19,140 nt of DNA from a virus (Duplodnaviria > Heunggongvirae > Uroviricota > Caudoviricetes): positions 1 to 19,140 of IMG/VR virus record IMGVR_UViG_2778261300_000006. One strand, 5' to 3'. Both the position numbers and the translations under genes were made by a program. Within the stretch, counting starts at the first letter, position 1. The number at the start of each line of letters is the position of its first letter. The notes beneath the pieces are model-generated. The model was not told where the DNA came from, did no database searches, and saw only the letters and a program-made list of their open reading frames with translations. This document shows positions 1 through 14,641 of the stretch, in pieces.

Positions 1-201
1 TTAGGTAACTTCTTTACCTATTGCAACCGATAGATCTCGCAAAATCCGATAAGTCAAACGACCGCGAGGTAGTTCACTTTTACCAGCCCAGCGACTGACT
101 GCCTGGGTGACTGTTCGTGGTTCATAGCCCGCGTTAAGCGCGAACTGGCGCAAGCTACTGCCTCGTTCAACCAGCCGTGCCCGAACTTGTTGTTTGTTCA
201 T
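1..201 (-). CDS. Ner/Cro-like small HTH DNA-binding regulator
   Basis: 66-aa ORF (ATG at 201; the track's 207 start is GTG). The segment SLRQFALNAGYEPRTVTQAVSRWAGKSE resembles the Mu Ner / Nlp family pattern (SLSALSRQFGYAPTTLANALERHWPKGE) from memory. It is divergent from the plus-strand regulator. The stop codon sits at the window edge (1..3). Confidence 0.55.
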   Translation of the reverse strand: MNKQQVRARLVERGSSLRQFALNAGYEPRTVTQAVSRWAGKSELPRGRLTYRILRDLSVAIGKEVT

Positions 202-289
202 ATGCACCGTGTTCCTGTTAGGTTATGATGTACTCTATTGGGTCTATTGTACACACCCAAATGAGTGTGTCAAATTGAGATATGTTCAA
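202..289. promoter_or_regulatory. Divergent intergenic control region between the Ner-like and XRE-like regulator genes
   Basis: 88-bp AT-rich spacer between two divergently oriented HTH genes. It contains a short inverted repeat, acacac-N9-gtgtgt (about 246..266). Promoters and operators are inferred from geometry only. Confidence 0.3.
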
Positions 290-697
290 ATGAGTACAAA
301 AGAGAGATTGCGTGAAGTGATGGATGCTAATGGCATGACAATAAAGGCATTATCTGACTTATCAAAAATTCCATATCGCTCACTTCAAAACTATTTGCGT
401 GGAGAGAGAGAACCAAACGCAGAGGCTCTTGTTGCGCTAAGTGCCCATTTGGGTGTATCGATCGATTGGCTACTTACCGGTAAAGAACATATTCCATCTA
501 AAGAAATTGTTGCTGTACCAACACAACATCAATTCAGCCCGTCAGACCTTAAAATGCTTGAACTTCTAAACCAGTTAGATCCTGAGGTTCGGCGAGATCT
601 CATGCGAGGCGCTGAAGAAAAACAGCGTGTGATTGAGATGGAAAAACAACTGAAGGAATTATCCGCAACGATTGAGCGGTTAAAAAATGTGGGTTAA
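290..697 (+). CDS. XRE-family HTH transcriptional regulator (repressor-like) with a C-terminal coiled-coil region
   Basis: ATG at 290 (MSTKERLREVMDANGMTIKALSDLSKIPYRSLQNYLRGEREP...) gives a classic XRE/Cro-CI-type helix-turn-helix. The C-terminus is charged and heptad-like (EEKQRVIEMEKQLKELSATIERLK). The track ORF starts at 194, but its N-terminal extension is unlikely to be translated. No S24 peptidase domain is present. Confidence 0.6.
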   Translation: MSTKERLREVMDANGMTIKALSDLSKIPYRSLQNYLRGEREPNAEALVALSAHLGVSIDWLLTGKEHIPSKEIVAVPTQHQFSPSDLKMLELLNQLDPEVRRDLMRGAEEKQRVIEMEKQLKELSATIERLKNVG

Positions 698-767
698 TGT
701 GTTCCTAACGAGAACATATAGCAGAAATTATTTGCCATTAAGCAATAAAAAATAAGGTGGATAGCCA

Positions 768-1775
768 ATGTCTGAGCAGACCATTGAAGTTAAACACGTT
801 GTAGTTCACATTTTAGACAAACAACAAAATGGAGACGCTTCTGAGAGATTGAGTCCTGAAGAAGGTCTAGTTACTGAAGCCTCTCAGCGCCTTATAAACG
901 ATATTTGTGCAAAATATGCAGGACGCACAGGTAAAGGTTATGGCTATTTTGAAGGCGATACGGATAACTATCCTATGGAACGAATGGCTGGGGACTTTCT
1001 CGAAGGTGTTGATGATTTCTACCAAAGTTCCTGCCGAATGATGCATCACCTGACGGAACGTTCTCAGCGAGAAAACATGGCTACTGGTGGTTATGTTCTT
1101 TTTGCAAATATCGTGATAGGACACAATGAACACCTGTTGATAGCTATTGTAAGCGCTACCATTGGGTCCACTGTCACAGATGATTTTAACATCCAAGATA
1201 GTACCTATCTTGATATTGCTAAGCTGCGTATGGCTGGGCGCATTGACTTAACCGCGTGGGAAAGTGGCGCAGAGCGCTATATCAGTTTTCTTAAGGGGCA
1301 AGGTAATGTTTCAAACTATTTTAAACAGTTCCTAGGCTGTAATGATGTCTTAATCGCCAAACGAGAGTCTGAAAAGTTACGTGACGTTTTAAAAGCATTT
1401 GCGGCAGAGAAAGGACTTGACGGCGCTGAAAAAGATGCATTTCTTAAGAGTGCGTTTGAACACTTACATGCACTAAGTAAGGCTGGTGAACCACTTAGTC
1501 TTGAAACCCTTGTTAATGCCATTTGGCCCCAGGCTCCCGAGGAGTTATCTGGTAAACTTGCTGCTGAAGAGTTGGAGTTATCGGATGGCTTCGTTCCTGA
1601 TGGTCGAGTCATTCGGGCTCTGGTATCTTTTAAAGGCAAGTCTAAATATTGGGAACTTAAGTTTGACCGGGAAGGGAAAACTGAAGGCTATATTGATTAT
1701 GATCCGGAAACAAATATTATCACCCTACGTAATGTACCTGAAGAATTTAGGGAAATGTGGATGACTGAGGTTTAA
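768..1775 (+). CDS. NdpA/YejK-like (nucleoid-associated-protein-like) soluble protein; cargo gene A
   Basis: ATG at 768 with RBS AAGGTGG 7 nt upstream. 335 aa. Recalled NdpA-family landmarks: N-terminal I-x-V-K-HVVVHILDK, KGYGYF, and GGYVLFANIV...HLLIAIV. AT-rich relative to the tail genes. This is a recall-based assignment, not a search result. Confidence 0.5.
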   Translation: MSEQTIEVKHVVVHILDKQQNGDASERLSPEEGLVTEASQRLINDICAKYAGRTGKGYGYFEGDTDNYPMERMAGDFLEGVDDFYQSSCRMMHHLTERSQRENMATGGYVLFANIVIGHNEHLLIAIVSATIGSTVTDDFNIQDSTYLDIAKLRMAGRIDLTAWESGAERYISFLKGQGNVSNYFKQFLGCNDVLIAKRESEKLRDVLKAFAAEKGLDGAEKDAFLKSAFEHLHALSKAGEPLSLETLVNAIWPQAPEELSGKLAAEELELSDGFVPDGRVIRALVSFKGKSKYWELKFDREGKTEGYIDYDPETNIITLRNVPEEFREMWMTEV

Positions 1776-1777
1776 TC

Positions 1778-2983
1778 GTGGCGATTTCATTTGAGATGCT
1801 GACAGCTCTGTATCGTCGTATGGAATTCCAAGAGGGGTTTCGTGTCGGTTCGCTGTTGCTCTTAGATCAGTCCGATTGTGATCTGGTTGATACTTTGCTT
1901 GATGATCCTCGTGAATATGGTCTTTCTATTGATACAGGCACTATCGCTCCAGGTAACACGATCATCCTACGTGTGACGTCACCACGGAGTGGACTGGGAC
2001 TTGTGTTTTCCACCCATGAAAAATTGCTAAATGCTCCAAAGCATCAGTGCCTTGAGCCAGCTAATTACTTCATCCTAGAAACAAAATTTCGTAATGATGA
2101 TGAAGATATCCCCGTTTTCATCAGCAACTACCGGAAGATTCTCGAGTTCGTTAACCTGCTAAAAGAGGCCGCGGCCTACTTTGATAACTCAACTTGTCAG
2201 TTAGTTTTTCTGAAAAAAGAAGTTATCAAGCTATTACCGCACTTCGCTGCAGAAAATGTACAAAATTTGCAAAGGGAGTATCTTGATAACCTTATAGCTT
2301 GTTTCAATGATGATACCCATAAGGATCAGAAGCTAGATATTCTGATTGAAAGTATTCAAGCAGTTAGTGATGGAATTGATTCACCTCTAGTATTCGCTTA
2401 TTTACTGGACAATATTCAGCGTCTGCATGAAAAGTTTCTGAAAGGGTATCGTATCTACTCTTCTGGATTCTCTTATGACAAAGTAATGGATCAACTGCGT
2501 GCTGCAAAAGTCGAAGAAATGGGTAAAATCCACAAAGCGTTTTCAGATATCCAGAACCATATACTTGGCATTCCTGTTGCCTCTGTTATCGTAGCTACCC
2601 AATTCAAAGTGGCTACGAAATGGTCAGGCCAAGGGATAACAAACACAATAATTCTTCTGGGATGCATTTTTGCTGCAACGTTAATCTGGCTGGCACTTTC
2701 GAACCAGATGCAATCTATAAAGGCCTTAGGCGAAGAAATTGAATACAAAGAAAAACAGATTAATAAGGAATATTCCTTCATTAAAGATGACGTGGCTGGT
2801 GTATTTAGCAGTATTTCTGCGCGACTAGACACGCAGAAACGTACGTTCTGGATTATACGTGGTGTTCTAGTTATGGGAATTATTACCGCTATCACTGTTT
2901 ATTTTTGGTACACAAAACCAGCCCTTGACTTCATGCAGTACTTGATTCACTGCATGAAGTCTTACTATTCGGTCAAAAGTTGA
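1778..2983 (+). CDS. Membrane protein with a large N-terminal soluble domain and two C-terminal TM helices; cargo gene B
   Basis: GTG at 1778 with GAGG 7 nt upstream, 2 nt after the stop of gene A (operon coupling). Hydrophobic segments ITNTIILLGCIFAATLIWLAL and TFWIIRGVLVMGIITAITVYFWY are separated by a charged helical linker. No recognisable enzymatic motif. Confidence 0.55.
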   Translation: MAISFEMLTALYRRMEFQEGFRVGSLLLLDQSDCDLVDTLLDDPREYGLSIDTGTIAPGNTIILRVTSPRSGLGLVFSTHEKLLNAPKHQCLEPANYFILETKFRNDDEDIPVFISNYRKILEFVNLLKEAAAYFDNSTCQLVFLKKEVIKLLPHFAAENVQNLQREYLDNLIACFNDDTHKDQKLDILIESIQAVSDGIDSPLVFAYLLDNIQRLHEKFLKGYRIYSSGFSYDKVMDQLRAAKVEEMGKIHKAFSDIQNHILGIPVASVIVATQFKVATKWSGQGITNTIILLGCIFAATLIWLALSNQMQSIKALGEEIEYKEKQINKEYSFIKDDVAGVFSSISARLDTQKRTFWIIRGVLVMGIITAITVYFWYTKPALDFMQYLIHCMKSYYSVKS

Positions 2984-3743
2984 GGATAATGAGTTCCTTC
3001 TTGCGACTGGATTTGCCAGTGATCTTGAGGTTGTAGCTGATATCAACCGACTGAATATTTAGACCGTTGAATGCCTGCCGCATTTCCGGGATATCGTTCA
3101 CCGATATAATCATCTTCCCTTTGATCCTGCGTGCTAAATCTGCCATATGATCATAATTTTCTAGTCCGAACTCCACACCATAACCTTCCGTTCCCCAGTA
3201 TGGAGGGTCACAGTAGAACAACGTATGCGGGCGATCATATCGTTCTATGCACTGTTGCCAGTCCATGTGTTCTATGACCGTTCTGGAAAGCCGCAGGTGT
3301 GCCGCTGACAGTTCTTCTTCAATACGCAGCAGGTTGAAGCGTGGCGGGGATATGGTGGAGGTACCAAAGCTGTGCTCCGCCACCTTGCCCCCAAACGCCT
3401 GCTTCTGAAGGTAATAGAACCGTGCTGCACGCTGGATATCCGTCAGTGTTTCTTCCGGGGTGATCTGCAGCCATTTGTAGATCTGCCGGCTGACCAGCGC
3501 CCATTTGAACTGGCGTACAAATTCTTCCAGATGATGTTTTACCACCCGATACAGGTTCACCAGCTCACCGTTGATATCATTAATGACTTCGATCTTGCCG
3601 GGTACCTTAAGAAAATAGAGCGCTGCTGCCCCACAAAACGGCTCCACATAACATTCATGCGCCGGAAACAGCGGCAGGATGTGTTTTGCAAGGCGGCGTT
3701 TGCCACCAATCCATGGAACGATGGGTAATGTCTGCATTTTCAT
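2973..3743 (-). CDS. dam: DNA adenine methyltransferase (Dam-like, D12-class N6-adenine MTase)
   Basis: 256 aa. N-terminal AdoMet-binding motif (EPFCGAAALYF), catalytic DPPY motif (FYCDPPYWG) and WIGGKRRL near the N-terminus. The 3' end overlaps the 3' end of cargo gene B by 11 bp (convergent). Confidence 0.85.
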   Translation of the reverse strand: MKMQTLPIVPWIGGKRRLAKHILPLFPAHECYVEPFCGAAALYFLKVPGKIEVINDINGELVNLYRVVKHHLEEFVRQFKWALVSRQIYKWLQITPEETLTDIQRAARFYYLQKQAFGGKVAEHSFGTSTISPPRFNLLRIEEELSAAHLRLSRTVIEHMDWQQCIERYDRPHTLFYCDPPYWGTEGYGVEFGLENYDHMADLARRIKGKMIISVNDIPEMRQAFNGLNIQSVDISYNLKITGKSSRKKELIILNF

Positions 3744-3990
3744 AATCTGTAAGCCTTTTACAATTATAAAAAATATGGCAGGCTAGTCTGGTCTCGCGAG
3801 ACTGACTGAACCTTGGTCGGCTCACAGCGCATTCCTGTGGGGCGATGGCCAGCCCGGTGTTCGGGTACCGGGCTGGTCGTTCTTTCAAAGCCATCATGCA
3901 GTGCACGTTTACATCTTCACTATTAACGCTGTTTAAAATCCGTATCCCGCCACATTTGTGATGCTGTCTCCACCAAACGAGGAGACACAC

Positions 3991-4341
3991 ATGAAAAACC
4001 TGAAAAAATTCATTCCCCCTGTTAAAAAACCTCGCCTCAGCGGCTGGCTGCTGACCTCAGTGCTGCTGCTGGGCACCATCGCTCTGGTCTCGCCACAGCA
4101 GTTGCCTGTTGTGATCTACAAGCTGGCACTCATCACGCTGGCAGCAGTGCTGGGTTACTGGCTTGACCGTTCGCTCTTCCCCAAAGCCCGTCCCGGTCAG
4201 TACCTGAAACATGACGACAGACTGATGGCTGAAGGGCGTTTCCCTGTGCAGACCGGCCTTCACCTTGTATTTTCTGCTGCGTTAATCCGCCGTGCACTGA
4301 TTGTTGCAGCGGTCTGTCTGGCTGTGGCAACAGGACTGTGA
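3991..4341 (+). CDS. Holin-like small membrane protein (2-3 predicted TM segments)
   Basis: ATG at 3991 with RBS GAGGAG at 3979..3984. 116 aa with hydrophobic stretches WLLTSVLLLGTIALV, VVIYKLALITLAAVLGYWL and ALIRRALIVAAVCLAVATGL. Stop overlaps the start region of the downstream lysis gene. Confidence 0.5.
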   Translation: MKNLKKFIPPVKKPRLSGWLLTSVLLLGTIALVSPQQLPVVIYKLALITLAAVLGYWLDRSLFPKARPGQYLKHDDRLMAEGRFPVQTGLHLVFSAALIRRALIVAAVCLAVATGL

Positions 4342-4343
4342 CC

Positions 4344-4886
4344 ATGAACTGGCCTCAAATCACCCTCATTATTCTGTTCGCCTTTGGTCTGGGCGTAACC
4401 GCCATCAGGCACGGAGAACCACGTAACGATAAATACAGCTTCTGGTGGCAGCTTGCTGGCAACCTGGTGATTGTCTGGCTGCTCTGGTGTGGCGGCTTCT
4501 TCAGTCAGGCCCGCGCAGCGCAGCCTCCGCAGGCTGCGCTGCAGTATCGCGATGATGTGATCCGTAATGCCCGGCTTGAATGGGGACTGTCTGCGCCGGT
4601 GGCCGATTTCGCCGCGCAACTGCATCAGGAAAGCGGCTGGCGACCTGATGCGGTCTCGCCGGCTGGCGCTCAGGGACTGGCGCAGTTCATGCCTGCCACT
4701 GCCGACTGGATAAGCCAGTTGATACCGATGCTGAGCAGTCGTGAGCCGTTTAATCCTGCATGGGCTATCCGGGCGCTGGTCAGCTATGACCGCTGGCTGT
4801 GGCAGCGCGTAAGCGCCGCCAACGACTGCGAGCGTATGGCCATGACACTGTCGGGCTATAACGGTGGTCTACACCCTGCGCCGTAA
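4344..4886 (+). CDS. Signal-anchored lytic transglycosylase (endolysin-like, SLT domain), apparently truncated or frameshifted
   Basis: N-terminal hydrophobic segment (WPQITLIILFAFGLGVTAI) followed by the family-1 SLT signature ...HQESGWRPDAVSPAGAQGLAQFMPATADWI... and YNGG. The ORF stops right after the YNGG motif; see the 4891..5016 feature. Confidence 0.6.
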   Translation: MNWPQITLIILFAFGLGVTAIRHGEPRNDKYSFWWQLAGNLVIVWLLWCGGFFSQARAAQPPQAALQYRDDVIRNARLEWGLSAPVADFAAQLHQESGWRPDAVSPAGAQGLAQFMPATADWISQLIPMLSSREPFNPAWAIRALVSYDRWLWQRVSAANDCERMAMTLSGYNGGLHPAP

Positions 4887-4890
4887 GGGG

Positions 4891-5016
4891 ATGCCTGTTG
4901 CCGACAAGTACGACGGAGCCGGCGGCAAGGTGAAGTACTGCCGTTATACCGATATCTACAAAGTCGCCGTGGTTGGTGGCGATGCCGGGTATCTCATTAC
5001 CGGTATCAGTAAATAA
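4891..5016 (+). pseudogene. +1-frame continuation of the transglycosylase gene (frameshifted 3' portion or separate 41-aa ORF)
   Basis: The +1 frame reads ...YTLRRKGMPVADKYDGAGGKVKYCRYTDIYKVAVVGGDAGYLITGISK and ends at 5016, exactly where the RBS (AAGGAGG) of the next gene begins. The frame switch would lie near the ggtggt run around 4862..4870. Confidence 0.4.
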
Positions 5017-5025
5017 GGAGGCGTT

Positions 5026-5364
5026 ATGGGAACCACTCAGCAGGTCATTCTGATCACAACCGTAACGGCAGGGGCCGCACTGGCACAGCAGCGTTTTGTC
5101 GGGGCAGATAATACCCCCTGTAAAGCCGGTGCCGCAGCGCTCGGGGTTGCCGAAGTGGATGCTGTTACCGGCGACAGCACGCCGGTGAGCGTTCTGGGCA
5201 TTATTGCTGTCGAGGCCGGGGCCGCTGTCAGCCGTGGTGTGGCTGTTCAGTCAGATGCTCAGGCCAGAGCCGTGCCGCAGTCCGGCGACGGTAAATCCTG
5301 TGGTATTGCACTTGATGAAGCCGGGGGTGAAGGCGACGTCATTCGTATCCTGCGCGGGGTGTGA
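5026..5364 (+). CDS. Ala/Gly-rich small structural protein (possibly Mu gp35-like, DUF2190-type)
   Basis: ATG at 5026 with perfect RBS AAGGAGG. 112 aa. Its position immediately upstream of a DUF1320-like gene matches Mu late-operon order. The family call is from memory and weak. Confidence 0.45.
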   Translation: MGTTQQVILITTVTAGAALAQQRFVGADNTPCKAGAAALGVAEVDAVTGDSTPVSVLGIIAVEAGAAVSRGVAVQSDAQARAVPQSGDGKSCGIALDEAGGEGDVIRILRGV

Positions 5365-5365
5365 C

Positions 5366-5812
5366 ATGTACTGCACCCTGGAGGATTTGCTTGCGCAGGT
5401 GCCGGAACGAACGCTGATCGAGCTCACCAGTGAAGAGATGGACTTCGACTCGCCTGCAACAGTGAATACCCGTGTGGTGGACAGCTGTATCCGCTATGCC
5501 GACGAGCTGATTGATGCCCATCTGCGCGGACGCTATATCCTGCCACTGGCAGAGATACCGACTGTTCTGCGGGACATTGCCATCACGCTGGTCCGTTACC
5601 GGCTCTACGCCCGCCGCCCGGAAGGTGACCTCCCGGATACGGTGAAGGATGACCACAAAGAAGCGCTGCGGCAACTCAGGGAGTTACGTGATAACAGGCT
5701 CACGCTGGGGCTGCCGTCCACTCAGAAAGATGTGCCTGAGCCTGGCGAGTTTCGTGTACGCAGCCGCCCGGCCACTTTCGGCGGTCGTGACGGTTTACTG
5801 GAGAAATACTGA
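5366..5812 (+). CDS. Mu gp36-like protein (DUF1320 family; head-tail joining or tail completion)
   Basis: MYCTLEDLL...RYILPLAEIPTVLRDIAITLVRYRLYARRP...HKEALRQLRELRDNRLTLGL matches the recalled DUF1320 pattern (RY.LPL...P.VL..A.D.A.YRLY.RR...YK.A...L..I..G...LG). Start is 2 nt after the upstream stop. Confidence 0.65.
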   Translation: MYCTLEDLLAQVPERTLIELTSEEMDFDSPATVNTRVVDSCIRYADELIDAHLRGRYILPLAEIPTVLRDIAITLVRYRLYARRPEGDLPDTVKDDHKEALRQLRELRDNRLTLGLPSTQKDVPEPGEFRVRSRPATFGGRDGLLEKY

Positions 5813-6276
5813 TGAACGTTCTGCCCGTCCTTGATGCGGTACTGGCCCGGTTACGCGAGAAGCTGCCGCAACTGCAGGTGGAGTACTTCCCGGAGAAACC
5901 GGCTGAATATCGCCTGAACCATCCGGTTGGCGCGTTGCTGCTGAGCTATGCCGGTTCGCGCTTTGACAGGCCGGATGATACCGGTGCGGTGATCCAGTCT
6001 CAGACTATCCAGCTCTGCGTCACGGTGGTCTTCCGCCAGCTCAACGGTAAAAAAGGGGCGATTAATGTCCTGGATGCTGTCCGCCGCATTCTCGGCGGCC
6101 ACACCCCGCCCGGCTGCCGCCGCCGTATCTGGCTGACCCGCGAGGTGTTTATCGGTGAAGTCAGGGGGCTGTGGCAATACGCCCTCGACTTCGCGACTGA
6201 AAGCGTCTTTATCGAAGACAGCGATTTACCGTCCGGCCCGCTGTTAACCGAAGTGAACTATGAGGAAAGCGAGTGA
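5812..6276 (+). CDS. Mu gp37-like virion morphogenesis / tail completion protein (tentative)
   Basis: ATG overlaps the upstream stop (TGATG) and GGAG lies 8 nt upstream. 154 aa. Assignment is by position between the gp36-like gene and the sheath gene in Mu-like order. Confidence 0.45.
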   Translation: MNVLPVLDAVLARLREKLPQLQVEYFPEKPAEYRLNHPVGALLLSYAGSRFDRPDDTGAVIQSQTIQLCVTVVFRQLNGKKGAINVLDAVRRILGGHTPPGCRRRIWLTREVFIGEVRGLWQYALDFATESVFIEDSDLPSGPLLTEVNYEESE

Positions 6277-6527
6277 TGAAAGAATACCGCTATTCCGGCC
6301 CGGCCAGCGGCGTCACGCTGTCGGACGGAACCGAAATCCTGCTCTGGCCGGGGAAGACGGTTTCCCTGCCGGAGGAGCATGAATACGTGAAGGTACTGGT
6401 GGCGCTGAAGCATCTGACGCCGGTACCAGAAGATACTAAACCCGCCGTCACACCGGCTGTGCAGTCACCAAAGCGCAGAAGCAGCAGTGACAGCGAAGTG
6501 AAAACGGAGGACTCCCATGGCAGCTAA
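6276..6527 (+). CDS. Small protein with a disordered, charged C-terminus (Mu gp38-like position)
   Basis: ATG at 6276 overlaps the upstream TGA. 83 aa. The 3' end overlaps the sheath gene start by 11 nt. Confidence 0.4.
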   Translation: MKEYRYSGPASGVTLSDGTEILLWPGKTVSLPEEHEYVKVLVALKHLTPVPEDTKPAVTPAVQSPKRRSSSDSEVKTEDSHGS

Positions 6528-7944
6528 CTATCTGCATGGCGTCGAAACCATTGAGGTGGAAAACGGAGCCCGCCCGGTTAAAACGGTGAAATCTGCCGTT
6601 ATTGGCCTGATTGGTACCGCCCCGATGGGGGATGTCAATACGCTGGTACAGTGCCTGTCTGAGAAAGACGCTGCGGCATTTGGCAGCCAGTTCACCGGCT
6701 TTACCATTCCGCAGGCGCTGGATGCGATTTATGACCATGGTGCAGGCACCGTTCTGGTCATTAACGTACTCGATCCGTCTGTGCATAAAACCGCTGTGGT
6801 CAGTGAGAATGTGTCGTTCGACAAGGCGACAGGCAGAGCCCGGCTGGCTAATCCGGTGGTCGCGCAGCTGGTACTGAAACCGGACAGCGACGGTCAGCCT
6901 TATGTTGAAGGTCAGGACTACTCGCTTGATGCACAGACCGGGGTGATTACTAACCTGGGTAAAAGCATTGCTGCAGATGCAACGGTGAAGGCCAGCTATA
7001 ACTATGCTGATCCGACCAAAGTCACCCCGGCTGATATCATCGGTACCGTTAACGCTGCAGGCAACCGTACCGGCATGAAGCTGCTTAACGACAGTTTTAA
7101 CCTGTTTGGCTACTTCGCCAAAATCCTGATTGCTCCGGTATTCTGCACCCAGAACAGCGTCTCGGTTGAGCTTATCGCCATGGCTGAGAAACTGGGAGCA
7201 GTAACCTATATTGATGCGCCGGTTGGTACCACTTTTGCGCAGGCTCTGGCGGGACGTGGCCCGGAAGGCACCATTAACTTTAATACCAGCTCTGACCGTG
7301 TCCGCCTGTGCTACCCGCATGTGAAGGTATATGACCCGGTGACGAACACGGAGCGTCTGGAGCCACTGAGCCAGCGTGCGGCGGGCCTGCGTGCCAAAGT
7401 CGACCTGGACAAAGGGTACTGGTGGTCATCCTCCAATCAGGAAATTCTGGGGATCACCGGCGTGGAGCGCCAGCTGTCGGCAATGATTGACGATCCGCAG
7501 AGCGAGGTGAACCTGCTTAACGAACAGGGGATCACCACGGTATTCAGCAGTTACGGCAGCGGCCTTCGTCTGTGGGGTAACCGGACGGCAGCATGGCCAA
7601 CGGTCACCCATATGCGTAACTTTGAGAACGTTCGCCGCACCGGTGATGTGATCAACGAGTCCATTCGTTACTTCAGCCAGCAGTACATCGACATGCCGAT
7701 TACTCAGGCGCTGATTGATGCACTGACGGAGTCGGTCAACGCCTACGGTCGCAAAATGACTGGTGATGGTGCGGTACTGGGCTTCCGTTGCTGGTTTGAT
7801 CCGGCCCGCAATCCGGAGACGGAGCTGGCCGCCGGGCACCTGTTGCTGAGCTACAAATATACGCCACCACCGCCGCTGGAGCGACTGACGTTTGAGACTG
7901 AAATCACCTCGGAATACCTGTTAACCCTGAAAGGGGGCAACTGA
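6517..7944 (+). CDS. Contractile tail sheath protein
   Basis: 475 aa with RBS GGAGG 6 nt upstream. Size and position are right for a myovirus sheath, and it is followed immediately by a tube-sized gene. Sequence is reminiscent of Mu L / P2 FI-type sheath proteins. Confidence 0.85.
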   Translation: MAANYLHGVETIEVENGARPVKTVKSAVIGLIGTAPMGDVNTLVQCLSEKDAAAFGSQFTGFTIPQALDAIYDHGAGTVLVINVLDPSVHKTAVVSENVSFDKATGRARLANPVVAQLVLKPDSDGQPYVEGQDYSLDAQTGVITNLGKSIAADATVKASYNYADPTKVTPADIIGTVNAAGNRTGMKLLNDSFNLFGYFAKILIAPVFCTQNSVSVELIAMAEKLGAVTYIDAPVGTTFAQALAGRGPEGTINFNTSSDRVRLCYPHVKVYDPVTNTERLEPLSQRAAGLRAKVDLDKGYWWSSSNQEILGITGVERQLSAMIDDPQSEVNLLNEQGITTVFSSYGSGLRLWGNRTAAWPTVTHMRNFENVRRTGDVINESIRYFSQQYIDMPITQALIDALTESVNAYGRKMTGDGAVLGFRCWFDPARNPETELAAGHLLLSYKYTPPPPLERLTFETEITSEYLLTLKGGN

Positions 7945-8465
7945 TGTCAAAGATTGAGATAAACCGAATCACGAATGCCAACATCTATCTGGATGGTACT
8001 AACCTGCTGGGACGGGCTGAGGAAGTTAAACTCCCCGATGTCTCCATGATTATGCAGGAGCACAAGGCACTGGGGATGGTGGGTAAGGTGGAACTCCCGG
8101 CTGGTTTTGACAAACTGGAAGGCGAAATCAAATGGAACAGCTTTTACCGCGATGCGATGTTGTCTGCCGCGAACCCGTACAAGTCGCTGGCGCTGCAGTG
8201 TCGCTCCAGCGTCCAGCGCTACAGCTCGCAGGGGCTGATCGACGAAATCCCGCTGGTCACCTTCCTGACAATTATGTTCAAGAAGAACCCGCTGGGGACG
8301 TTCAAACAGCACGAGAACGCCGAGTTCTCCAGTAGCTTCACCTGCACGTATATCAGACAGGTACTGGATGGTGAAGAGTTGCTGCAACTGGACTATCTGG
8401 CCAACATCTTCCGCGTCGGTGGCGTTGATCAACTGACTGACTATCGAATCAATATCGGGGGCTGA
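7944..8465 (+). CDS. Tail tube protein
   Basis: 173 aa. ATG overlaps the sheath stop (TGATG) and RBS AAGGGGG lies upstream. Canonical position after the sheath. Confidence 0.8.
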   Translation: MSKIEINRITNANIYLDGTNLLGRAEEVKLPDVSMIMQEHKALGMVGKVELPAGFDKLEGEIKWNSFYRDAMLSAANPYKSLALQCRSSVQRYSSQGLIDEIPLVTFLTIMFKKNPLGTFKQHENAEFSSSFTCTYIRQVLDGEELLQLDYLANIFRVGGVDQLTDYRINIGG

Positions 8466-8467
8466 CG

Positions 8468-8749
8468 GTGAGTGTTGAACTGACTGACAAAGGAGGGCGA
8501 TGTGCGTCACTGGGCATGTCAAATGGTACGTGGTTTACCCTCCTTGATATTCCGGGGGTGGAGACCCTCTTTAATACCCGTAAAACCAATGACCCGATTG
8601 ACTGCACACGTTCAAAGGCCCGCAAACTGGCCGATTTGATTGAAGCATGGGAGCCGCCCGACCAGTGGTTCTCCGGCACCGGCAACTCTGAGGGAAAGGC
8701 GCTTCTCATCGCTTTCCTGCGTAACTGCAAGGGTTTTCGCACTTGCTGA
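8468..8749 (+). CDS. Hypothetical small protein between tube and chaperone genes
   Basis: 93-aa ORF with GTG start at 8468 (alternative in-frame ATG at 8516). No recognisable family. Followed directly by a terminator-like hairpin. Confidence 0.3.
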   Translation: MSVELTDKGGRCASLGMSNGTWFTLLDIPGVETLFNTRKTNDPIDCTRSKARKLADLIEAWEPPDQWFSGTGNSEGKALLIAFLRNCKGFRTC

Positions 8750-8756
8750 CATCACA

Positions 8757-8778
8757 GGGGCTCCGGCCCCTTCTTTTT
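8757..8778 (+). terminator. Rho-independent terminator-like hairpin inside the tail operon
   Basis: GGGGC-tccg-GCCCC stem-loop (8757..8770) followed by TTCTTTTT (8771..8778). Confidence 0.45.
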
Positions 8779-8846
8779 AATCCCCTTTAATATCCGTCAC
8801 GTCCACCGCCAGACATACTGCTCTGAATTTACAAAGGAGTATGATC

Positions 8847-9182
8847 ATGTCACAGACCCAGTCCGATACTTTTACGCTGTCTTATCCTTTCACCACTGCT
8901 GCAGGTACCAGAATTGAACAGATTGAACTGAAACGCCTGACAGTAAAAGACCTGAAGCAGGTGCGCAAAATCAACAAAGACCCGACAGACTGGGACGAAC
9001 CACTGATTGCCCGTAGCACCGGTATCCTCCCGGAAGACCTCGATAACATGGATCTTGCCGACTATATGGAGCTGCAGAAACGATTTCAGAAAATCACTGG
9101 GCTGGGCAAGAGCGACAAAAACACTGATGCAGGTGCAGGGCCTGCTGGCGAGATGGTTCAGGTTTCAACCGGGGGAGATTGA
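8847..9182 (+). CDS. Tail assembly chaperone (P2 gpE / lambda gpG-type), upstream frame
   Basis: ATG at 8847 with AAGGAG 7 nt upstream (the 8841 ATG is too close to the RBS). Small acidic protein directly upstream of the tape measure gene, with an overlapping out-of-frame ORF, the hallmark of the conserved chaperone frameshift pair. Confidence 0.65.
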   Translation: MSQTQSDTFTLSYPFTTAAGTRIEQIELKRLTVKDLKQVRKINKDPTDWDEPLIARSTGILPEDLDNMDLADYMELQKRFQKITGLGKSDKNTDAGAGPAGEMVQVSTGGD

Positions 9183-9264
9183 TGCCCTCGATACTGACGA
9201 TCTGGAGATGTGGCTGGAGCAGGCTGAAGAGCAAATCAAAAGCGAGTTCGGCGACAATCAGTAA
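9007..9264 (+). CDS. Frameshift extension of the tail assembly chaperone (E'-like C-terminal extension)
   Basis: ORF in the +1 frame relative to 8847..9182, overlapping its 3' end. It encodes an acidic helical tail (...IDALDTDDLEMWLEQAEEQIKSEFGDNQ). It has no plausible independent start (TTG in the track). Only the 3' part (roughly 9170..9264) would be translated after the shift. Confidence 0.45.
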   Translation: MPVAPVSSRKTSITWILPTIWSCRNDFRKSLGWARATKTLMQVQGLLARWFRFQPGEIDALDTDDLEMWLEQAEEQIKSEFGDNQ

Positions 9265-9357
9265 CAACGTATCACTTAACAGCCGCCAGTCGCGGCTGTT
9301 CTGCATGGGTTTCAGACACTTCCCTTCCGTTTTTTTTGCTTTCAGAGGATAGCCACC

Positions 9358-11823
9358 GTGGCCAGTGAATTTTCAGTCGGCGTCATTATTGGCGGCATTG
9401 TCGGGAGCAGCTTCCGCTCAGCCGTCAGTGGCACCCGACGCGCCCTTGATTCCCTTGGTGATACCTCCCGCCGTCTGCAGGAACGCCAGAATGCCTTAAC
9501 CCGGGCAACAGAACGTTATGGTCAACTGGGTTCTTCCCGGATGCAGCATCTCAACAGCGAGTTGCTGCGGGTAAGCCGCACCATGGAGCAAATTGAACGT
9601 CAGCAGCGCCGTCTGTCAGCAGTATCAGCCACCGGTGATGCGTTGAAGGCTAACCGCCTGGCGCTCTATGGTCAGGGTGCAGAAACCTATGCTATTGGCA
9701 GAACGCTGGGCGCACCGGTCATGGCCTCGGTTAAACAATATGCCTCGTTTGAATCACAGTTGCGGGATATCAGTGTCACAGGAGACCTGGATGCAAAACA
9801 GGAACGTGCAATTGGCCAGGCTATCAGACAGGCCTCGCTGAAGGTTAACCAACTGCAGGAGTCTCTGTTAGGGGGAGTCGGACAATTAGTTGCTGATGGT
9901 ATGGCCCCCGAACGGGCAGCAACGTTTGCAGAGATGCTTGGAAAGACCGCTACAGCAACCAAAGCCGATATGACCGACCTTGCCAAAATGACTTATGCCT
10001 TCAGCGATGCACTCAGAATCACTGATGCGAAAGAACTTGAACAGGCGTTTGGTATTGCGGCAACAGGAGCCAAACTTGGGTCATTTGAGCTGAAGGATAT
10101 GGCAAAAGCATTACCCGGTATGGCTAAAGCCTTCGCTGCTCGTGGTATTTATGGAAAAGATGCGATTACCCAGATTGTTGCCAGTCTGGAGGTCGGTAAA
10201 GGTAGTGGCTCTGCAGAGGAAGCGGTCACCAATATGTCCAACTGGCTGGCAGCAATGGGCCGCGGAGATACCATCCAGAAATATGCTAAAGCCGGGGTGG
10301 ATTACCAGGGGTCAATGCAGAATTACGTCGCTCAGGGTTTTTCGCAGTACGAAGCTTCACTGATGATTGCCAACCGTTTTATCGACAGTAAAGGCAAAGC
10401 GTTCTTGCAGCAATGGAAAGCTGCAGGAGCAAGAGGCGATCAGGAAGGTCAGCAGAAACTCATGGAGTCATTTGGTCTGGCTGAGGTCTTTACCGATATT
10501 CAGACTGTCAACCATTTACTGTCAATGCGACAGGGCTGGGATAAATACCTTTCCAGTAAGCAGGAAATGAATACTCCGGCTGCAATGTCTACCCTGGATA
10601 AGGATGCTGCAAAGCAGAATGATACGCTTGAAGGTCGCTGGCGCAGAATGCAGATCGGCTTTAATGATTCTGCTATCAGCATCGGGCAATCCTTGCGTCC
10701 GGCTTTGCTCCAGTTGGGTGAAACATTTATTCCTTTAATGGACAGTGTTGGCAAATGGATAGCGGCAAATCCGCAGCTCGTCAGCAGCACCATAAAGGTT
10801 GTGGGCGCATTACTCGCTTTCAGGATGGCCACTATCGGTCTCAAGCTTGGGCTGAATCTCCTTCTTTCCCCCTTTGTAAGCGTCTGGAAAAATGCTGTTT
10901 TACTTCGGGCCAACTGGCTTCGTCTGACGCTCGCACTGGGGGAAGGCGGTAAACTCCGCTGGCTGGTGACAGGCTTTGGTGCTGTCGCCAGAGGAGCCAG
11001 AACACTGGGTGGTGTGCTCTCAGGGGGGCTGGTTCGCGGAATTATGAGCGCCGGGCGTGCCGTTCTCTGGATTGGCCGGGCGCTGCTGATGAATCCCATC
11101 GGTCTCGTTATCACCGCCGTCGCGGCAGCAGCTTACCTTATCTACCGCAACTGGGGCGCAGTCAGTAGCTGGTTTAAACAGCGCTGGGCTGACATTCAGG
11201 AAGCCTTTAACGGCGGCATCGTGGGAATTGGTAAACTGCTGGTTAACTGGTCTCCGGCTGGTCTGCTTTATAAAGCCTTTGCGGCTGCGCTGAAATATCT
11301 CGGCGTTGATCTGCCGGCGAAATTCACCGACTTCGGTGGTCATCTTATTGACGGGTTGATAAATGGCATCAGAAACAAATGGGCGTCACTCAAAACCAGC
11401 GTAACCGGAATGGGTGACAGCATCAGTGACTGGTTCAGCGAAAAGCTGGGCATCCATTCACCGAGTCGCGTGTTTATGGGCTTTGGTGACAATATCGCGC
11501 AGGGTGCCGCCATTGGCCTGCAACGGACCACTCCGCTTGCTGCACTGGCCGGGCAGCGCCTGGCCGCTGAAATGACACCGGATGTTCCCCGTATCCCGTC
11601 GCCGGAAATCATGGCTGCCGGATATTCAGGCCGTGGCGCAACTGCAACCGGCGGTGGAGCGTCTGGCGGTATCCAGGTCAGCTTTAATCCTCAGTTTTTC
11701 CTCAATGGTAAGGAAACCGCAGCGCCTGCCGGGCTGGCTGGTGCCCTGAATATGAGCCTGCATGAGCTGGAAAAAATGCTGGAGCGTCTGCTGGCTCAGA
11801 AACAACGTAAGGAGTACAGCTGA
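9358..11823 (+). CDS. Tail tape measure protein
   Basis: 821 aa. GTG start with AGAGGA 8 nt upstream. Long helical N-terminal region, Gly/Ala-rich hydrophobic central segments and overall architecture typical of tape measure proteins. Confidence 0.85.
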   Translation: MASEFSVGVIIGGIVGSSFRSAVSGTRRALDSLGDTSRRLQERQNALTRATERYGQLGSSRMQHLNSELLRVSRTMEQIERQQRRLSAVSATGDALKANRLALYGQGAETYAIGRTLGAPVMASVKQYASFESQLRDISVTGDLDAKQERAIGQAIRQASLKVNQLQESLLGGVGQLVADGMAPERAATFAEMLGKTATATKADMTDLAKMTYAFSDALRITDAKELEQAFGIAATGAKLGSFELKDMAKALPGMAKAFAARGIYGKDAITQIVASLEVGKGSGSAEEAVTNMSNWLAAMGRGDTIQKYAKAGVDYQGSMQNYVAQGFSQYEASLMIANRFIDSKGKAFLQQWKAAGARGDQEGQQKLMESFGLAEVFTDIQTVNHLLSMRQGWDKYLSSKQEMNTPAAMSTLDKDAAKQNDTLEGRWRRMQIGFNDSAISIGQSLRPALLQLGETFIPLMDSVGKWIAANPQLVSSTIKVVGALLAFRMATIGLKLGLNLLLSPFVSVWKNAVLLRANWLRLTLALGEGGKLRWLVTGFGAVARGARTLGGVLSGGLVRGIMSAGRAVLWIGRALLMNPIGLVITAVAAAAYLIYRNWGAVSSWFKQRWADIQEAFNGGIVGIGKLLVNWSPAGLLYKAFAAALKYLGVDLPAKFTDFGGHLIDGLINGIRNKWASLKTSVTGMGDSISDWFSEKLGIHSPSRVFMGFGDNIAQGAAIGLQRTTPLAALAGQRLAAEMTPDVPRIPSPEIMAAGYSGRGATATGGGASGGIQVSFNPQFFLNGKETAAPAGLAGALNMSLHELEKMLERLLAQKQRKEYS

Positions 11824-12707
11824 TGTTTGCCGTACTGGGTGATATTGAGTTTGAACTGATTACCTACTGGGACGGCTTCGAGGCCACGTTTGGCGTCGAT
11901 TATGCGGAGCATGCCCGCATCGAGGGTAAACCCGGCCTGCAGTTTGTCGGCGACAGGCTGGACGAAATCCAGATAAGCCTGGTCTTCCATCAGCATTATT
12001 GTGTGCCCGACGTGGAGCTGGCGAGAGTGCGAACAGCCATGAAGGCCCATCAGGCACTGGCGCTGGTCTTCGGCAACGGTGACTATCGCGGCTGGTTCGT
12101 GATTACCGATGTGACCGCAACCAGCGAGCAGACAGACAGCACCGGTAACGTGCTGGCTGTCAGTGCCACCGTGTCTCTCCGGGAATACACCGGTGACCCG
12201 AAAAATCCTCTGCAACCGCCGGCAATACGCAGGCAGGTTCCCGGTGCCGGAGCTGTATCGGGTGCTGTTCCATCGCCTTCCGGGGTGGCGCAGTTCGTCC
12301 GTAACGGCGTCAACTATGCGAAACAGGCGCAGTCTGTACTCCAGACCACTATCAGTGCCGTTCGGGTGGCGCAGAAAATGAAGGGTAACCCCGTTGTCGC
12401 GCTGACCCGTGTGCCTGGACTGATGAGCGGACTGGGTAATATATCCGGAGCTCTGGGGAAAAGTGTTCCGGCGTTTAATGCACTCTCTGAATCCATGCCC
12501 GATGCCATCAGTCTGGCCAGAACAGCCAGTGAGGCAGCCACGTATGTACAGCAGGCGCAGTCGGCGCTGAGTGGTGTGGACAAAAGAAATATTGCAGGTG
12601 CTCTGGATACCGTTTCCGGGCAGCTTAACGCCGCCGGCACAGCATTCAACCGCATGTCTCCGGGATTAAGTGCAATGGCCGCCAGAATACTGACGAGGAG
12701 TGTGTGA
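11823..12707 (+). CDS. P2 gpU-like tail protein (DNA-circulation-type N-terminal domain)
   Basis: ATG overlaps the tape-measure stop, with AAGGAG 8 nt upstream. N-terminus MFAVLGDIEFELI resembles gpU-family starts. Position is after the tape measure. Confidence 0.55.
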   Translation: MFAVLGDIEFELITYWDGFEATFGVDYAEHARIEGKPGLQFVGDRLDEIQISLVFHQHYCVPDVELARVRTAMKAHQALALVFGNGDYRGWFVITDVTATSEQTDSTGNVLAVSATVSLREYTGDPKNPLQPPAIRRQVPGAGAVSGAVPSPSGVAQFVRNGVNYAKQAQSVLQTTISAVRVAQKMKGNPVVALTRVPGLMSGLGNISGALGKSVPAFNALSESMPDAISLARTASEAATYVQQAQSALSGVDKRNIAGALDTVSGQLNAAGTAFNRMSPGLSAMAARILTRSV

Positions 12708-12919
12708 TGTTTCTTGAACATATTACCCGTGACGGAGAGCGCTGGGATTCGCTGGCATGGCAGTACTACGGTGACCCGCTGGGCTATCCCCGGATTATTG
12801 CAGCCAATCCGCACGTGGCCATTACGCCGGTGCTGCCCTCCGGGGTGTTGTTACTGATCCCGGTTATTGAGGCTGAAGATGCCCGCACAGAAGAGGATGT
12901 TGCTCCATGGCTGAGATAA
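12707..12919 (+). CDS. Tail protein X-like (P2 gpX family)
   Basis: 70 aa. ATG overlaps the upstream stop, with GAGGAG 6 nt upstream. Pattern W..LAWQYYGDPLGY..IIAANP......LP.G..L.IP resembles the gpX / LysM-like family. Confidence 0.6.
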   Translation: MFLEHITRDGERWDSLAWQYYGDPLGYPRIIAANPHVAITPVLPSGVLLLIPVIEAEDARTEEDVAPWLR

Positions 12920-14061
12920 ACAGTACTGCGCAAGACGTATCAGCGTTAACCGGCGTCAGCGATGTGCTGACGCCGGTGTTCACTCTGTGGTATCTGCAGA
13001 AAAATATCACCTCTGATATCGCGCCTTATGTCACCCGTGTGACCTGGAGCGATAACATCAAAAATGAGTCCGATACCATTGAGGTGGAGCTGGATGACAC
13101 CGATGGTCGCTGGCTGGATAAGTGGTATCCGGGCAAGGGTGACACGCTGACGCTGAAAATGGGTTATCAGGGCGAGAAACTGCTGTCCTGCGGTACATTC
13201 TCAATAGACGAGATCGAAGTGAGTTCGCCCGCGTCCGTTGTCGCTATCCGTGGGGTGGCCACCTCGGTTAACAGTGCTCTGCGGACTAAATCCAGCCGTG
13301 GTTTTGAGAACACCACGCTGGCAGCTGTTGCGGGGCGGATTGCCAGAAAGCACCGACTGAAACTGGTGGGCAGCATTGAGTCCATCAAAATCGACCGGGT
13401 GACCCAGTATGCTGAAACCGACGTGGGTTTTCTGCGCCGGCTGGCCAGCGAGTATGGTTATGCAGTGAAAGTGGTCAGTGACCAGTTGATTTTTTCTCAT
13501 CTGGCCACACTGCGCAGTCAGGAGCCGGTCAGGCAGTTAAAACCGCAGGATGTGGCCCGCTTTTCCCTGCGTGACACCATCAACCGGGTCTATAAATCTG
13601 CAAAGGTAAAACACCAGAAAAGCAGCAGTAAAAAACTGATCGTCTACGAAGCTGATGGTGGTACCCGTGAAAGCGACAAAAAGCTCAAAGGTGGTAAGGT
13701 TACCAGCGCTGACTCACTTAAAGTTAACAGCCGTGTCAGCGACCCGGACAGTGCCCGGATTAAAGCGGATTCAGCACTGGCCAGACATAACGAATACCAG
13801 CAGAACGGCTCCCTGACGCTGACGGGAACGCCTCAACTGACAGCAGGCAACAAAATTGAACTGGTGGGCTTTGGACAGTTATCCGGTCCATGGCTGATAA
13901 TCACTGCCCGCCATGCGTTTGAGCGTAACAGCGGCTACACCACAGAGCTGGAAGTGGCACGGGGGCCAGTCACAAGAGGGAAAAAACAAAAAACTCAGAA
14001 ACTCACGGTTTATCACCCGGATGGCAGTACATCGACGGTGATTAAGGAGAAGAAAAAATGA
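12907..14061 (+). CDS. P2 gpD-like / Mu P-like tail protein (baseplate hub-type)
   Basis: 384 aa. Position between the gpX-like and spike genes. Lys-rich C-terminus. 3' end overlaps the next start (ATGA). Confidence 0.65.
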   Translation: MAEINSTAQDVSALTGVSDVLTPVFTLWYLQKNITSDIAPYVTRVTWSDNIKNESDTIEVELDDTDGRWLDKWYPGKGDTLTLKMGYQGEKLLSCGTFSIDEIEVSSPASVVAIRGVATSVNSALRTKSSRGFENTTLAAVAGRIARKHRLKLVGSIESIKIDRVTQYAETDVGFLRRLASEYGYAVKVVSDQLIFSHLATLRSQEPVRQLKPQDVARFSLRDTINRVYKSAKVKHQKSSSKKLIVYEADGGTRESDKKLKGGKVTSADSLKVNSRVSDPDSARIKADSALARHNEYQQNGSLTLTGTPQLTAGNKIELVGFGQLSGPWLIITARHAFERNSGYTTELEVARGPVTRGKKQKTQKLTVYHPDGSTSTVIKEKKK

Positions 14062-14585
14062 CTGGTGTCACCCGTCAGGTCGGTACGGTCAGTGCCGTTG
14101 ATGCCGACAGGGTTCAGGCCCGCGTTCGTCTGCCTGAATGCGATAATCTGCGCACAAACTGGCTTAACGTGCTACAGCGCAATACCCAGGATAACAAGGA
14201 TTACTGGCTCCCTGACGTGGGGGAGCAGGTTGAGGTGCTGCTCGATGCCAACGGCGAGGATGGTGTTATTCTGGGCGCGGTGTACTCAGACGTCGATAAA
14301 CCGCCGTTCAGTGATAAAAACGTCCGGGGTACGAAATACGCTGATGGCGCGGAGTTCAGTTATAACCGCGCGACCCATACGCTGACGGTCAGAGGAGGTA
14401 TTGAGCGTATCGTGGTGGAGGTTGCCGCTGATATCTCTCTCAAAGGGAAAAAACTCGACCTCACGGGAGTTACCACGATCAACGGCCCCGCGACACTCAA
14501 TGGTGATCTGGAAATCAACGGAAGCGCCCATGCAACGGGTAACATATTTGCTGATGGTCAGAACTCTAATCACCATTCCCATTGA
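14058..14585 (+). CDS. Baseplate central spike protein (gpV-like)
   Basis: 175 aa with AAGGAG RBS. gpV-like N-terminal OB-fold region. His-rich C-terminal apex (...GQNSNHHSH). Confidence 0.75.
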   Translation: MTGVTRQVGTVSAVDADRVQARVRLPECDNLRTNWLNVLQRNTQDNKDYWLPDVGEQVEVLLDANGEDGVILGAVYSDVDKPPFSDKNVRGTKYADGAEFSYNRATHTLTVRGGIERIVVEVAADISLKGKKLDLTGVTTINGPATLNGDLEINGSAHATGNIFADGQNSNHHSH

Positions 14586-14641
14586 ACCTTCTTAAACGCC
14601 TTTAATATCGGCGCTTACTTCCCGGGGGCAATACTGCCTCC

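Follow-up and report, generated by a model that had tools for sequence, protein, structure and literature searches.

A probable structured small RNA gene conserved beside the dam gene of BcepMu-like and other phages

The window analyzed here, that is, the whole 19,140-nucleotide stretch of the tailed phage record IMGVR_UViG_2778261300_000006 (Caudoviricetes), comes from a BcepMu-like (Bcepmuvirus-type) transposable prophage of Escherichia coli, and our subject is the intergenic region at 3744-3990, between the gene for a DNA adenine methyltransferase (dam), on the minus strand, and a holin gene, on the plus strand. A sequence-only reading of this region had singled out a palindrome and a hairpin, taken to be two regulatory sites lying between divergently transcribed genes, ahead of the lysis and tail operon. 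The flanking genes are indeed divergent (Dam, 2973-3743, minus; holin, 3991-4341, plus). In E. coli MS20655, the 501 bases around the element are 100% identical to those of the window, and the full prophage there consists, in order, of a Mor-family gene, transposase genes, a repressor gene, a pair of cargo genes and, on the minus strand, dam, after which holin, lysis, head and tail genes follow on the plus strand. It appears likely that a structured small RNA, approximately 97 nucleotides long, is encoded on the plus strand at approximately 3776-3887 by a gene complete in itself, which diverges from dam and has an extended -10 promoter of its own. The features on which this reading turns, together with the flanking genes, are as follows.

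2973-3743, minus strand: dam, encoding a D12-class N6-adenine DNA methyltransferase of 256 amino acids (Pfam PF02086, E = 7e-28; 'DNA adenine methylase' in RefSeq).
3747-3755, minus strand: ribosome-binding region of dam (region T), which reads GGCUUACAG in the dam mRNA, with AUU AUG next; 8 of its 9 positions match the 5' arm of P2 in the RNA.
3776-3784, plus strand: extended -10 promoter of the RNA, TG-g-CAGGCT = TGGCAGGCT, with the hexamer at 3779-3784 (from the family columns of the model-based alignment described below).
3791-3802, plus strand: P0, the 5'-terminal hairpin, identical with the palindrome of the sequence-only reading; stem GUCU/AGAC, loop CGCG (fold; co-varying pairs).
3803-3811, plus strand: 5' strand of P1 (UGA..GAAC), the long-range helix that closes the three-way junction (single-sequence minimum-free-energy fold; covariation).
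3812-3815, plus strand: J1/2, the unpaired junction CUUG, which with the preceding CC and the following G makes up the family-conserved CCUUGG/CCYYGG (alignment, fold).
3816-3846, plus strand: P2 hairpin, with the 5' arm X = GGCUCACAG (3819-3827), the loop 3828-3834, the 3' arm Y = CUGUGGG (3835-3841) and an outer 4 base pairs (bp) (fold; covariation).
3847-3878, plus strand: P3 hairpin, with its core, the hairpin of the sequence-only reading, at 3849-3876 (fold; covariation).
3879-3887, plus strand: 3' strand of P1 (GUUC..UCA) and U-rich tail GUUCUUUCA, the probable 3' end of the RNA (sequence invariance, fold).
3991-4341, plus strand: holin, the first gene of the lysis/late operon (gene annotation, translation).

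The sequence features are real. The palindrome GTCTCGCGAGAC lies at 3791-3802, as had been described, and so does the hairpin at 3849-3876, although its stem had been given as 9 bp and its loop as 10 nucleotides, whereas it has a perfect 10-bp stem (3849-3858/3867-3876) and an 8-nucleotide loop, and lengthens to 13 pairs (3847-3859/3866-3878) once G-U pairs are counted; the T-rich tract that follows it, TCGTTCTTTCA, is likewise present. Between the two lies a further inverted repeat that had escaped mention, CTCACAG/CTGTGGG (3821-3827/3835-3841). The window contains five perfect 12-bp palindromes against 4.9 in shuffled sequences, so that the palindrome by itself is not significant, and only comparative data lend it significance. 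The hairpin, in contrast, is unusual: perfect 10-bp hairpins with loops of 3-10 nucleotides occur at four places in the window against 0.07 expected, and its fold energy is -29.3 kcal/mol (z = -4.6). Two other perfect hairpins with stems of at least 10 bp, at 4515-4542 and 12949-12977, are inside coding regions. When the sequence 3791-3887 is folded alone as RNA, it adopts P0, P1 (UGA..GAAC/GUUC..UCA), P2 and P3, the same helices as in the family described below, at -47.8 kcal/mol (z = -3.4). The predicted architecture is thus P0, then a three-way junction of P1, P2 and P3, with P1 running into the U-rich tail.

Comparison with relatives turns these separate features into one. When the intergenic region is aligned with those of an E. 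coli prophage of 85% identity and of three phage records, conservation across 3778-3887 exceeds that of the sequence coding for Dam, and the changes among these close relatives fall in hairpin loops or are compensatory. Forty-eight viral contigs that hold the palindrome and its flank yielded 36 variants, in which the P2 and P3 loops are hypervariable in both sequence and length, the P3 stem undergoes compensatory changes even among close relatives, and GTCGTTCTTTCA is invariant, to be followed by at least five unrelated continuations. A first broad DNA scan anchored on the middle hairpin returned mostly chance matches, yet it exposed distant homologues that are G+C-rich and share the layout, with a different first hairpin; a stricter pattern scan recovered more than 100 homologues. 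In a MAFFT alignment of 63 diverse viral-contig members, which was not fitted to any model, the consensus comprises four helices, with P2 and P3 nested inside P1 to form a three-way junction with the conserved unpaired CCUUGG; 93.6% of the alignment cells are paired, against approximately 40% when the partners are slid, and both sides change in 27 of the 40 pairs.

A covariance model was then built for the RNA family and applied to an unbiased set of 80 loci from species-representative genomes that had been picked only by the similarity of their Dam proteins (64-91% identity). The model matches 71 of the 80; every match lies immediately ahead of dam, on the strand opposite to it, and the E values range from 2e-5 to 2e-32. 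No other match below 1e-4 was obtained in the approximately 450 kb of these loci. With the Dam-selected set aligned to the model, 90.7% of cells are paired, against 35-53% with slid partners, and both sides change in 38 of the 40 pairs, the P2 core included (8 of 8 in P0, 5 of 5 in the P1 core, where 97.8% of cells are paired, 12 of 13 in P2 and 13 of 14 in P3), counts that lean towards structure because this set was aligned to the model, and with which the MAFFT-based alignment agrees. The arms of the P2 core are exchanged together, GGCUCACAG/CUGUGGG in some members being replaced by GACUUGCAG/CUGCGGGUC or AAUUCACUG/CAGUGGAAA in others. The window itself has a single strong match, at 3772-3898 on the plus strand (89.7 bits; 16.6 bits on the reverse strand). 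The palindrome and the hairpin are therefore not the independent sites for which they had been taken: they make up helices P0 and P3 in a single RNA, all four helices of which co-vary. What stands of the earlier description is an intergenic regulatory region with divergent transcription, conserved in relatives and linked to Dam.

The functional strand is the plus strand of the window, judging by the consensus pairs, of which 393 are G-U and 102 are A-C, and by the sense strand, which folds more stably than its complement in 66 members out of 72 (mean difference, 9.9 kcal/mol). A motif of the form (T)GnTAnnnT ends 5-7 nucleotides ahead of P0, with A(-11) in 71, T(-7) in all 72 and G(-14) in 63 of the 72 members; the first T of this -10 motif is present in 62 of the 72 and is replaced by C in the E. 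coli type. From the spacing, the RNA would start at about G3790/G3791, G3791 being the first base of the palindrome. The transcript probably ends at the U-rich tail, as suggested by the tail itself and the sharp end of homology there. Several other readings of the signals in this region were considered and rejected. A sigma-70 promoter, TTTTCA-16-TACAAT (3737-3764), is not a good candidate for the RNA promoter: its -10 element is TGCAAT in most relatives, and because it is not kept, the extended -10 at 3776-3784 is preferred. A sigma-54 reading of TGGCA fails, by eye, on the spacing and the misfit of the -12 element; CCUUGG as a -10 element of dam on the other strand is inconsistent in reading frame, and the position equivalent to -7 varies, being a P1 pair; and the RNA structure as the terminator of an upstream plus-strand operon that reads through dam is superfluous, given that this operon has a hairpin of its own at 2930-2958.

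The association with dam extends far beyond BcepMu-like phages. The hosts in the Dam-selected set are Enterobacterales, many Betaproteobacteria, some Gammaproteobacteria, Desulfuromonas and Geobacter, and a divergent Dam open reading frame (ORF) lies beside 115 of the 137 viral copies that had been selected by the motif. The RNA adjoins dam in Pseudomonas phage B3, where it is upstream of com-dam inside the tail operon, in Vibrio phage VP882 and in Burkholderia phage phiE125; given the same pairing in these phages, dam and the RNA make up a mobile cassette rather than a part of the Mu-like late operon. The combination appears to be a two-gene cassette that has moved among Mu-like, N15-like and lambda-like phages of Proteobacteria, to go by its genomic distribution. 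In 22 of the 71 cassettes, and in phage B3 (L299 2346-2531), a Com-like zinc-finger ORF (M..IRCGxC..KLAEGxY) stands between the RNA and dam; L275, L288, L289, L298, L242 and others are examples of such loci. Small hypothetical ORFs overlap the RNA gene in VP882 (gp36, L300 2084-2416) and B3 (ORF45/46, L299 2079-2304), and may be mis-annotations; RefSeq annotates no RNA at the element.

A clue to function comes from the leader of dam. The P2 5' arm, GGCUCACAG (3819-3827), is an almost exact copy of the ribosome-binding region that the dam mRNA has in the window, AAGGCUUACAGAUUAUG, and the two co-vary across lineages, CUCACAG going with GGCU(U/C)ACAG, CUUGCAG with CUUGCAG, and AAUUCAC with GGCAAUUCA; in VP882, the corresponding sequences are GGCUCACA and GGCUCACUAAUG. 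Among 46 unique loci, 56% show agreement between the P2 5' arm and the ribosome-binding region of dam or com at no fewer than 7 of the 9 positions, a share that drops to 1.7% when the ribosome-binding regions are shuffled; these loci fall into only three independent classes, and their start codons were assigned by a heuristic. Matches within a class exceed those to other classes in all three main classes. At every inspected position where the P2 arm departs from the dam site, the change is C-to-U or A-to-G, such that pairing with a CUGUG(G/A)G-type partner is kept. Because the 5' arm copies the ribosome-binding region, the 3' arm is complementary to it.

These observations suggest that the RNA controls the translation of dam, and two routes can be envisaged. 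In trans, the 3' arm of P2 in the small RNA would pair with the ribosome-binding region of dam and mask it; in cis, a dam-sense transcript that crosses the RNA gene would carry the complement of the P2 5' arm, and this complement would mask the dam site on the same molecule. Pairing between the small RNA and the leader could then modulate the masking, so that the RNA may raise or lower the expression of the neighboring methylase. The cis pairing is the stronger of the two, with 9 bp, by reading almost all of them Watson-Crick. Dam-sense transcription across the RNA gene is implied in B3, because a tape-measure gene lies beyond the cassette. In Com-type cassettes, the com start codon is 3-19 nucleotides from the 5' edge of the model, almost abutting the RNA promoter, and the leader of the com mRNA must, on account of this proximity, overlap the RNA gene. 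The DNA-modification genes of Mu-like phages, both Mom and the methylases that replace it, are thought to be harmful and strictly controlled (PMC3299994), and a dedicated control RNA fits such a requirement. In the window prophage, the 3' structure of the RNA might additionally keep rightward transcription out of the lysis operon. Antisense seeds in the loops of P2 and P3 were rejected, these loops having no complementary 7-mer at homologous positions in the full prophage L001 and the 85%-identical prophage L002.

Several points weigh against this account. Besides the model-guided counts and the small number of mimicry classes mentioned above, the expression of the RNA and its ends are deduced from motifs and homology; the tail, UCGUUCUUUC, is weak, with no more than three consecutive U, and is not called by a simple terminator scan (distant members end in UUCUUUUUUU). 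In the window, the trans pairing amounts to 7 bp including two G-U pairs, at -10.7 kcal/mol, and competes with the more stable intramolecular P2. The cis route needs dam-sense transcription across the RNA gene, and in a promoter scan of the window, no promoter turned up for dam, nor any leftward one on the right-hand side of the RNA. Most Com-type cassettes lack the mimicry. Finally, RNA folding alone leaves the palindromy of P0, loop included, without an explanation. A wider proposal, in which the family, a three-way junction with a loop-less palindromic hairpin at its 5' end, is an undescribed, widespread class of phage RNAs that is tied to one clade of Dam and gates host-toxic expression through a copy of the ribosome-binding site, with a possible second function for P0 of a kind that known small RNAs do not show, is put forward as tentative and as somewhat less likely than not.

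The region to the right of the RNA bears on the supposed link with the lysis and tail operon, and adds two features.

3923-3939, plus strand: late-promoter-like motif TTAACGCTGTTTAAAAT, upstream of the holin gene and outside the RNA gene (YTAA-N5-WTTAAWAT).
3965-3987, plus strand: hairpin TGTCUCC-N9-GGAGACA (DNA arms TGTCTCC/GGAGACA, 3965-3971/3981-3987) over the holin Shine-Dalgarno sequence (-14.2 kcal/mol, z = -3.0).

The pattern YTAA-N5-WTTAAWAT occurs three times in the window, always on the plus strand and in intergenic gaps ahead of blocks of late genes (3923-3939, 8777-8793 and 14592-14608), and the same three sites are kept in the 85%-identical prophage; an estimate of chance occurrence would not be independent because the pattern was derived from these sequences, and it is the conservation in the second prophage that counts as evidence. 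Given the motif sites and this conservation, the late promoter is downstream of the palindrome and hairpin and separable from them. In PhiKM and KP12, homology to the window ends exactly after GTCGTTCTTTCA (window 3887) and resumes at approximately 3918-3920, with one or two extra genes in between, so that the right-hand boundary of the RNA tail falls exactly after TTTCA; in PhiKM, the inserted cargo genes are on the strand opposite to the element. A place for the element in the lysis/tail operon is not supported, with a late-promoter-like motif further downstream, cargo genes between the two in PhiKM and KP12, and the element moving with dam into quite different neighborhoods in B3, VP882 and phiE125. 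The hairpin over the holin Shine-Dalgarno sequence, not mentioned in the sequence-only reading, has an invariant stem and a variable loop in four relatives and is likely to be a translational brake on holin.

The sequence-only reading had proposed the palindrome as the binding site of a dimeric regulator and had suggested a search for the same palindrome in related clusters; in such a comparison, the element is conserved and the palindrome sequence itself is not. Of the 60 unique members, 45 have a perfect Watson-Crick palindrome of at least 8 nucleotides through the P0 apex, and no fewer than 18 central hexamers are represented, TCGCGA, TGTACA, GTCGAC, GACGTC, CGATCG and GTGCAC among them; the P0 sequences of B3, VP882 and phiE125 are GCTCACGTGAGC, GCCTCGCGAGGC and CCTACGTAGG. 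Comparable palindromes are rare in the P2 (2 of 66) and P3 (7 of 71) regions. Because a hairpin needs no self-complementary loop, something other than folding must select for the palindromy of P0, and this excess over the needs of RNA folding makes a role at the DNA level possible. The candidates are homodimerization of the RNA, formation of the same hairpin by overlapping transcripts of opposite strands, and structure-specific recognition of the DNA. An operator role, in which the palindrome as DNA would serve a dimeric regulator (a Mor-family activator or a repressor, for instance) of the dam, RNA or late promoter, and which could coexist with the role of the RNA, nevertheless appears unlikely. 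In its favor, the palindromy through the apex in 45 of the 60 members, unlike P2 and P3, goes beyond what folding needs, the palindrome occupies approximately +1 to +12 with respect to the RNA promoter, less than 50 bp from the dam start, and the full prophage encodes a Mor-family protein; however, among closely related cassettes, in phages with Dam proteins 64-91% identical, the site takes 18 sequences with only the palindromy kept, while the flanking positions of the RNA are kept. Moreover, the palindrome is single-copy in the 40-kb prophage locus, with near-matches at chance level; the G-U pairs in P0 stems work on one strand only; and the cassette crosses phage types with different regulators, while no regulator other than Com, an RNA-binding protein, is encoded in the cassette itself. 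As for the late promoter in particular, the center of the palindrome, at 3796.5, is approximately 150 bp upstream of the predicted start, with cargo genes between them in relatives. A repeated operator was rejected, no other copy having been found in the window or in the full prophage. There is nothing to support the idea that the CGCG core is a methylation-sensitive site, and the Dam target GATC does not occur between 3700 and 4000.

The known Mor and C sites are 16-bp imperfect dyads centered at -43.5 of promoters that have a -10 and no -35 element (PMC2582627). The locus resembles the Mor/C-dependent promoters of Mu in being part of a Mu-like prophage with a Mor-family protein and in having a dyad-symmetric element near promoters without a -35. 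The palindrome differs from Mor/C sites in its location at the start site of an RNA, its variable sequence and its distance from the late -10; no conserved dyad is found at -43.5 of the late motifs, unlike in C-dependent promoters of Mu. A Mor/C-type site for the late promoter was rejected on account of its wrong position with respect to the -43.5 center (PMC2582627) and the cargo insertions in relatives.

We consider it very unlikely that the RNA is catalytic or protein-binding, whether as a new class of self-cleaving ribozymes or by serving the methylase or a host factor as cofactor or decoy, instead of being a regulator that acts by base pairing. The compact three-way junction, its conserved nucleotides CCUUGG and GGUCGC, and the semi-conserved P3 apex GUGUU..GCAC would suit such a role, and hammerhead and twister ribozymes are enriched near genes of Mu-like phages, for reasons that are unexplained (PMC10085705). 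However, the connection to ribozymes comes from the literature only, strictly conserved nucleotides are few, base pairing is what the mimicry of the ribosome-binding site suggests, and no ribozyme family of Rfam 15 gives a match; searches for self-cleaving ribozymes (hammerhead, twister, twister-sister, pistol, hatchet and HDV-like) that covered the window, 13 loci of distant members and nine motif-less dam loci found none. Pairing of CCUUGG with 4.5S RNA was also considered and rejected, the variants CCCTGG and CCTCGG lending it no support. The least probable of the alternatives, and one that we would scarcely expect to hold, is that the element acts solely in cis on the late lysis/tail operon, as a leader, an attenuator or an insulating terminator, devoid of a free-standing RNA function: the element is upstream of holin on the same strand, its hairpin and U-rich tract would block read-through into the lysis genes, and the arrangement resembles the terminator-then-promoter order ahead of the second late motif, but the PhiKM genes between the element and holin are on the opposite strand, the element runs antisense to the late genes around it in B3, VP882 and phiE125 and diverges from dam in every case, a conserved -10 of its own lies just upstream, and a terminator requires neither a co-varying three-way junction nor the conserved CCUUGG.

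The structured small RNA gene thus favored apparently has not been described before: no account of it was found in the literature, and the window has no match to any Rfam 15 family at E <= 10. The closest resemblance is to plasmid countertranscript RNAs. Four distant members match ctRNA_pGA1 (RF00236) in a segment that takes in P2, P3 and the tail, with scores of 35.6, 33.5, 29.5 and 27 bits that do not reach the gathering threshold of 45; we read this as similar architecture rather than membership. Like these RNAs, which are approximately 80-100 nucleotides long, the phage RNA has a candidate recognition hairpin, then a terminator-like hairpin and a U-rich tail, and the two are alike in being encoded beside, or antisense to, the leader of the gene that they control or, in the phage case, would control, and in having loops free to vary. 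Unlike them, the phage RNA adds a 5' palindromic hairpin and a long-range helix, and its partner is a phage methylase rather than a plasmid rep gene. Phage immunity and antisense RNAs that have branched folds, C4 of P1 and P7 and CI of P4, are likewise small, stable and structured; expressed from constitutive promoters, they regulate neighboring phage genes by RNA-RNA pairing, as the RNA described here may do. The latter differs from them in its dam partner and its architecture, gives no match to the Rfam C4 family, and has no co-varying loop targets that we could find. In Mu, the start site of mom is masked, and Com is its translational activator. The proposed control of dam would be similar in that a DNA-modification gene of a phage is silenced by occlusion of its ribosome-binding site (PMC3299994), and dissimilar in that the enzyme is a D12 Dam and not Mom. 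In the window, no com ORF separates the RNA from dam, and the covariance model has no match at the com-mom region of Mu itself. In VP882, the dam-adjacent RNA is not VpdS, a small RNA of approximately 50 nucleotides (PMC12197685).

The RNA family would be a new and well-supported addition to phage genomes from Enterobacterales, Beta- and Gammaproteobacteria and Desulfuromonadota, including the studied phages B3, VP882 and phiE125, in which the RNA is currently unannotated or covered by doubtful small ORFs. It offers a possible answer to the question of how phages that have replaced Mom with a Dam-type methylase silence the enzyme, and, should the control of dam prove true, it would be a natural example of a regulator that carries a copy of the ribosome-binding site of its target. 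For the window, the assignment of the late promoter shifts to 3923-3939, and in BcepMu-like prophages of E. coli, the 3' edge of the RNA is a precise boundary and a hot spot for cargo insertion.

This hot spot for cargo (moron) genes, at 3887/3888, immediately after the U-rich tail, has its counterparts at L003 3290-4716 and L004 3283-4249. Cargo varies on the other side of dam as well: between the repressor gene and dam, the window encodes a nucleoid-associated protein and a hypothetical protein of 401 amino acids (768-2983, plus strand), whereas the 85%-identical prophage (L002 18793-19320) and KP12 have a single unrelated ORF of approximately 175 amino acids in this interval. Within the 3' end of the 401-codon cargo ORF, at 2930-2958 on the plus strand, there is a perfect 10-bp hairpin, CTTCATGCAG-N9-CTGCATGAAG, followed by TCTTACTATT, just ahead of the 11-bp convergent overlap of this ORF with dam (2973-2983); transcription of the repressor/cargo operon may terminate there.

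Compared with the full prophage L001, from which it derives by deletion, the window lacks an internal segment: positions 4-4870 correspond to L001 16405-21271 and positions 4869-15585 to L001 29785-40501, so that approximately 8.5 kb (L001 21272-29784) are absent at the junction 4869-4870. The deletion has removed the 3' part of the gene for the SLT lysin, the spanin, terminase and portal genes and most head genes, while the start of the lysis block and the entire tail cluster are retained; the window is a defective prophage or, possibly, a tail-only element. Within the retained part, a small terminator-like hairpin, GGGGCUCCGGCCCC followed by UUCUUUUU, at approximately 8756-8775 on the plus strand, is located directly upstream of the second late motif, and this order of structure and then promoter, at approximately 8756-8793, mirrors that of the holin region.

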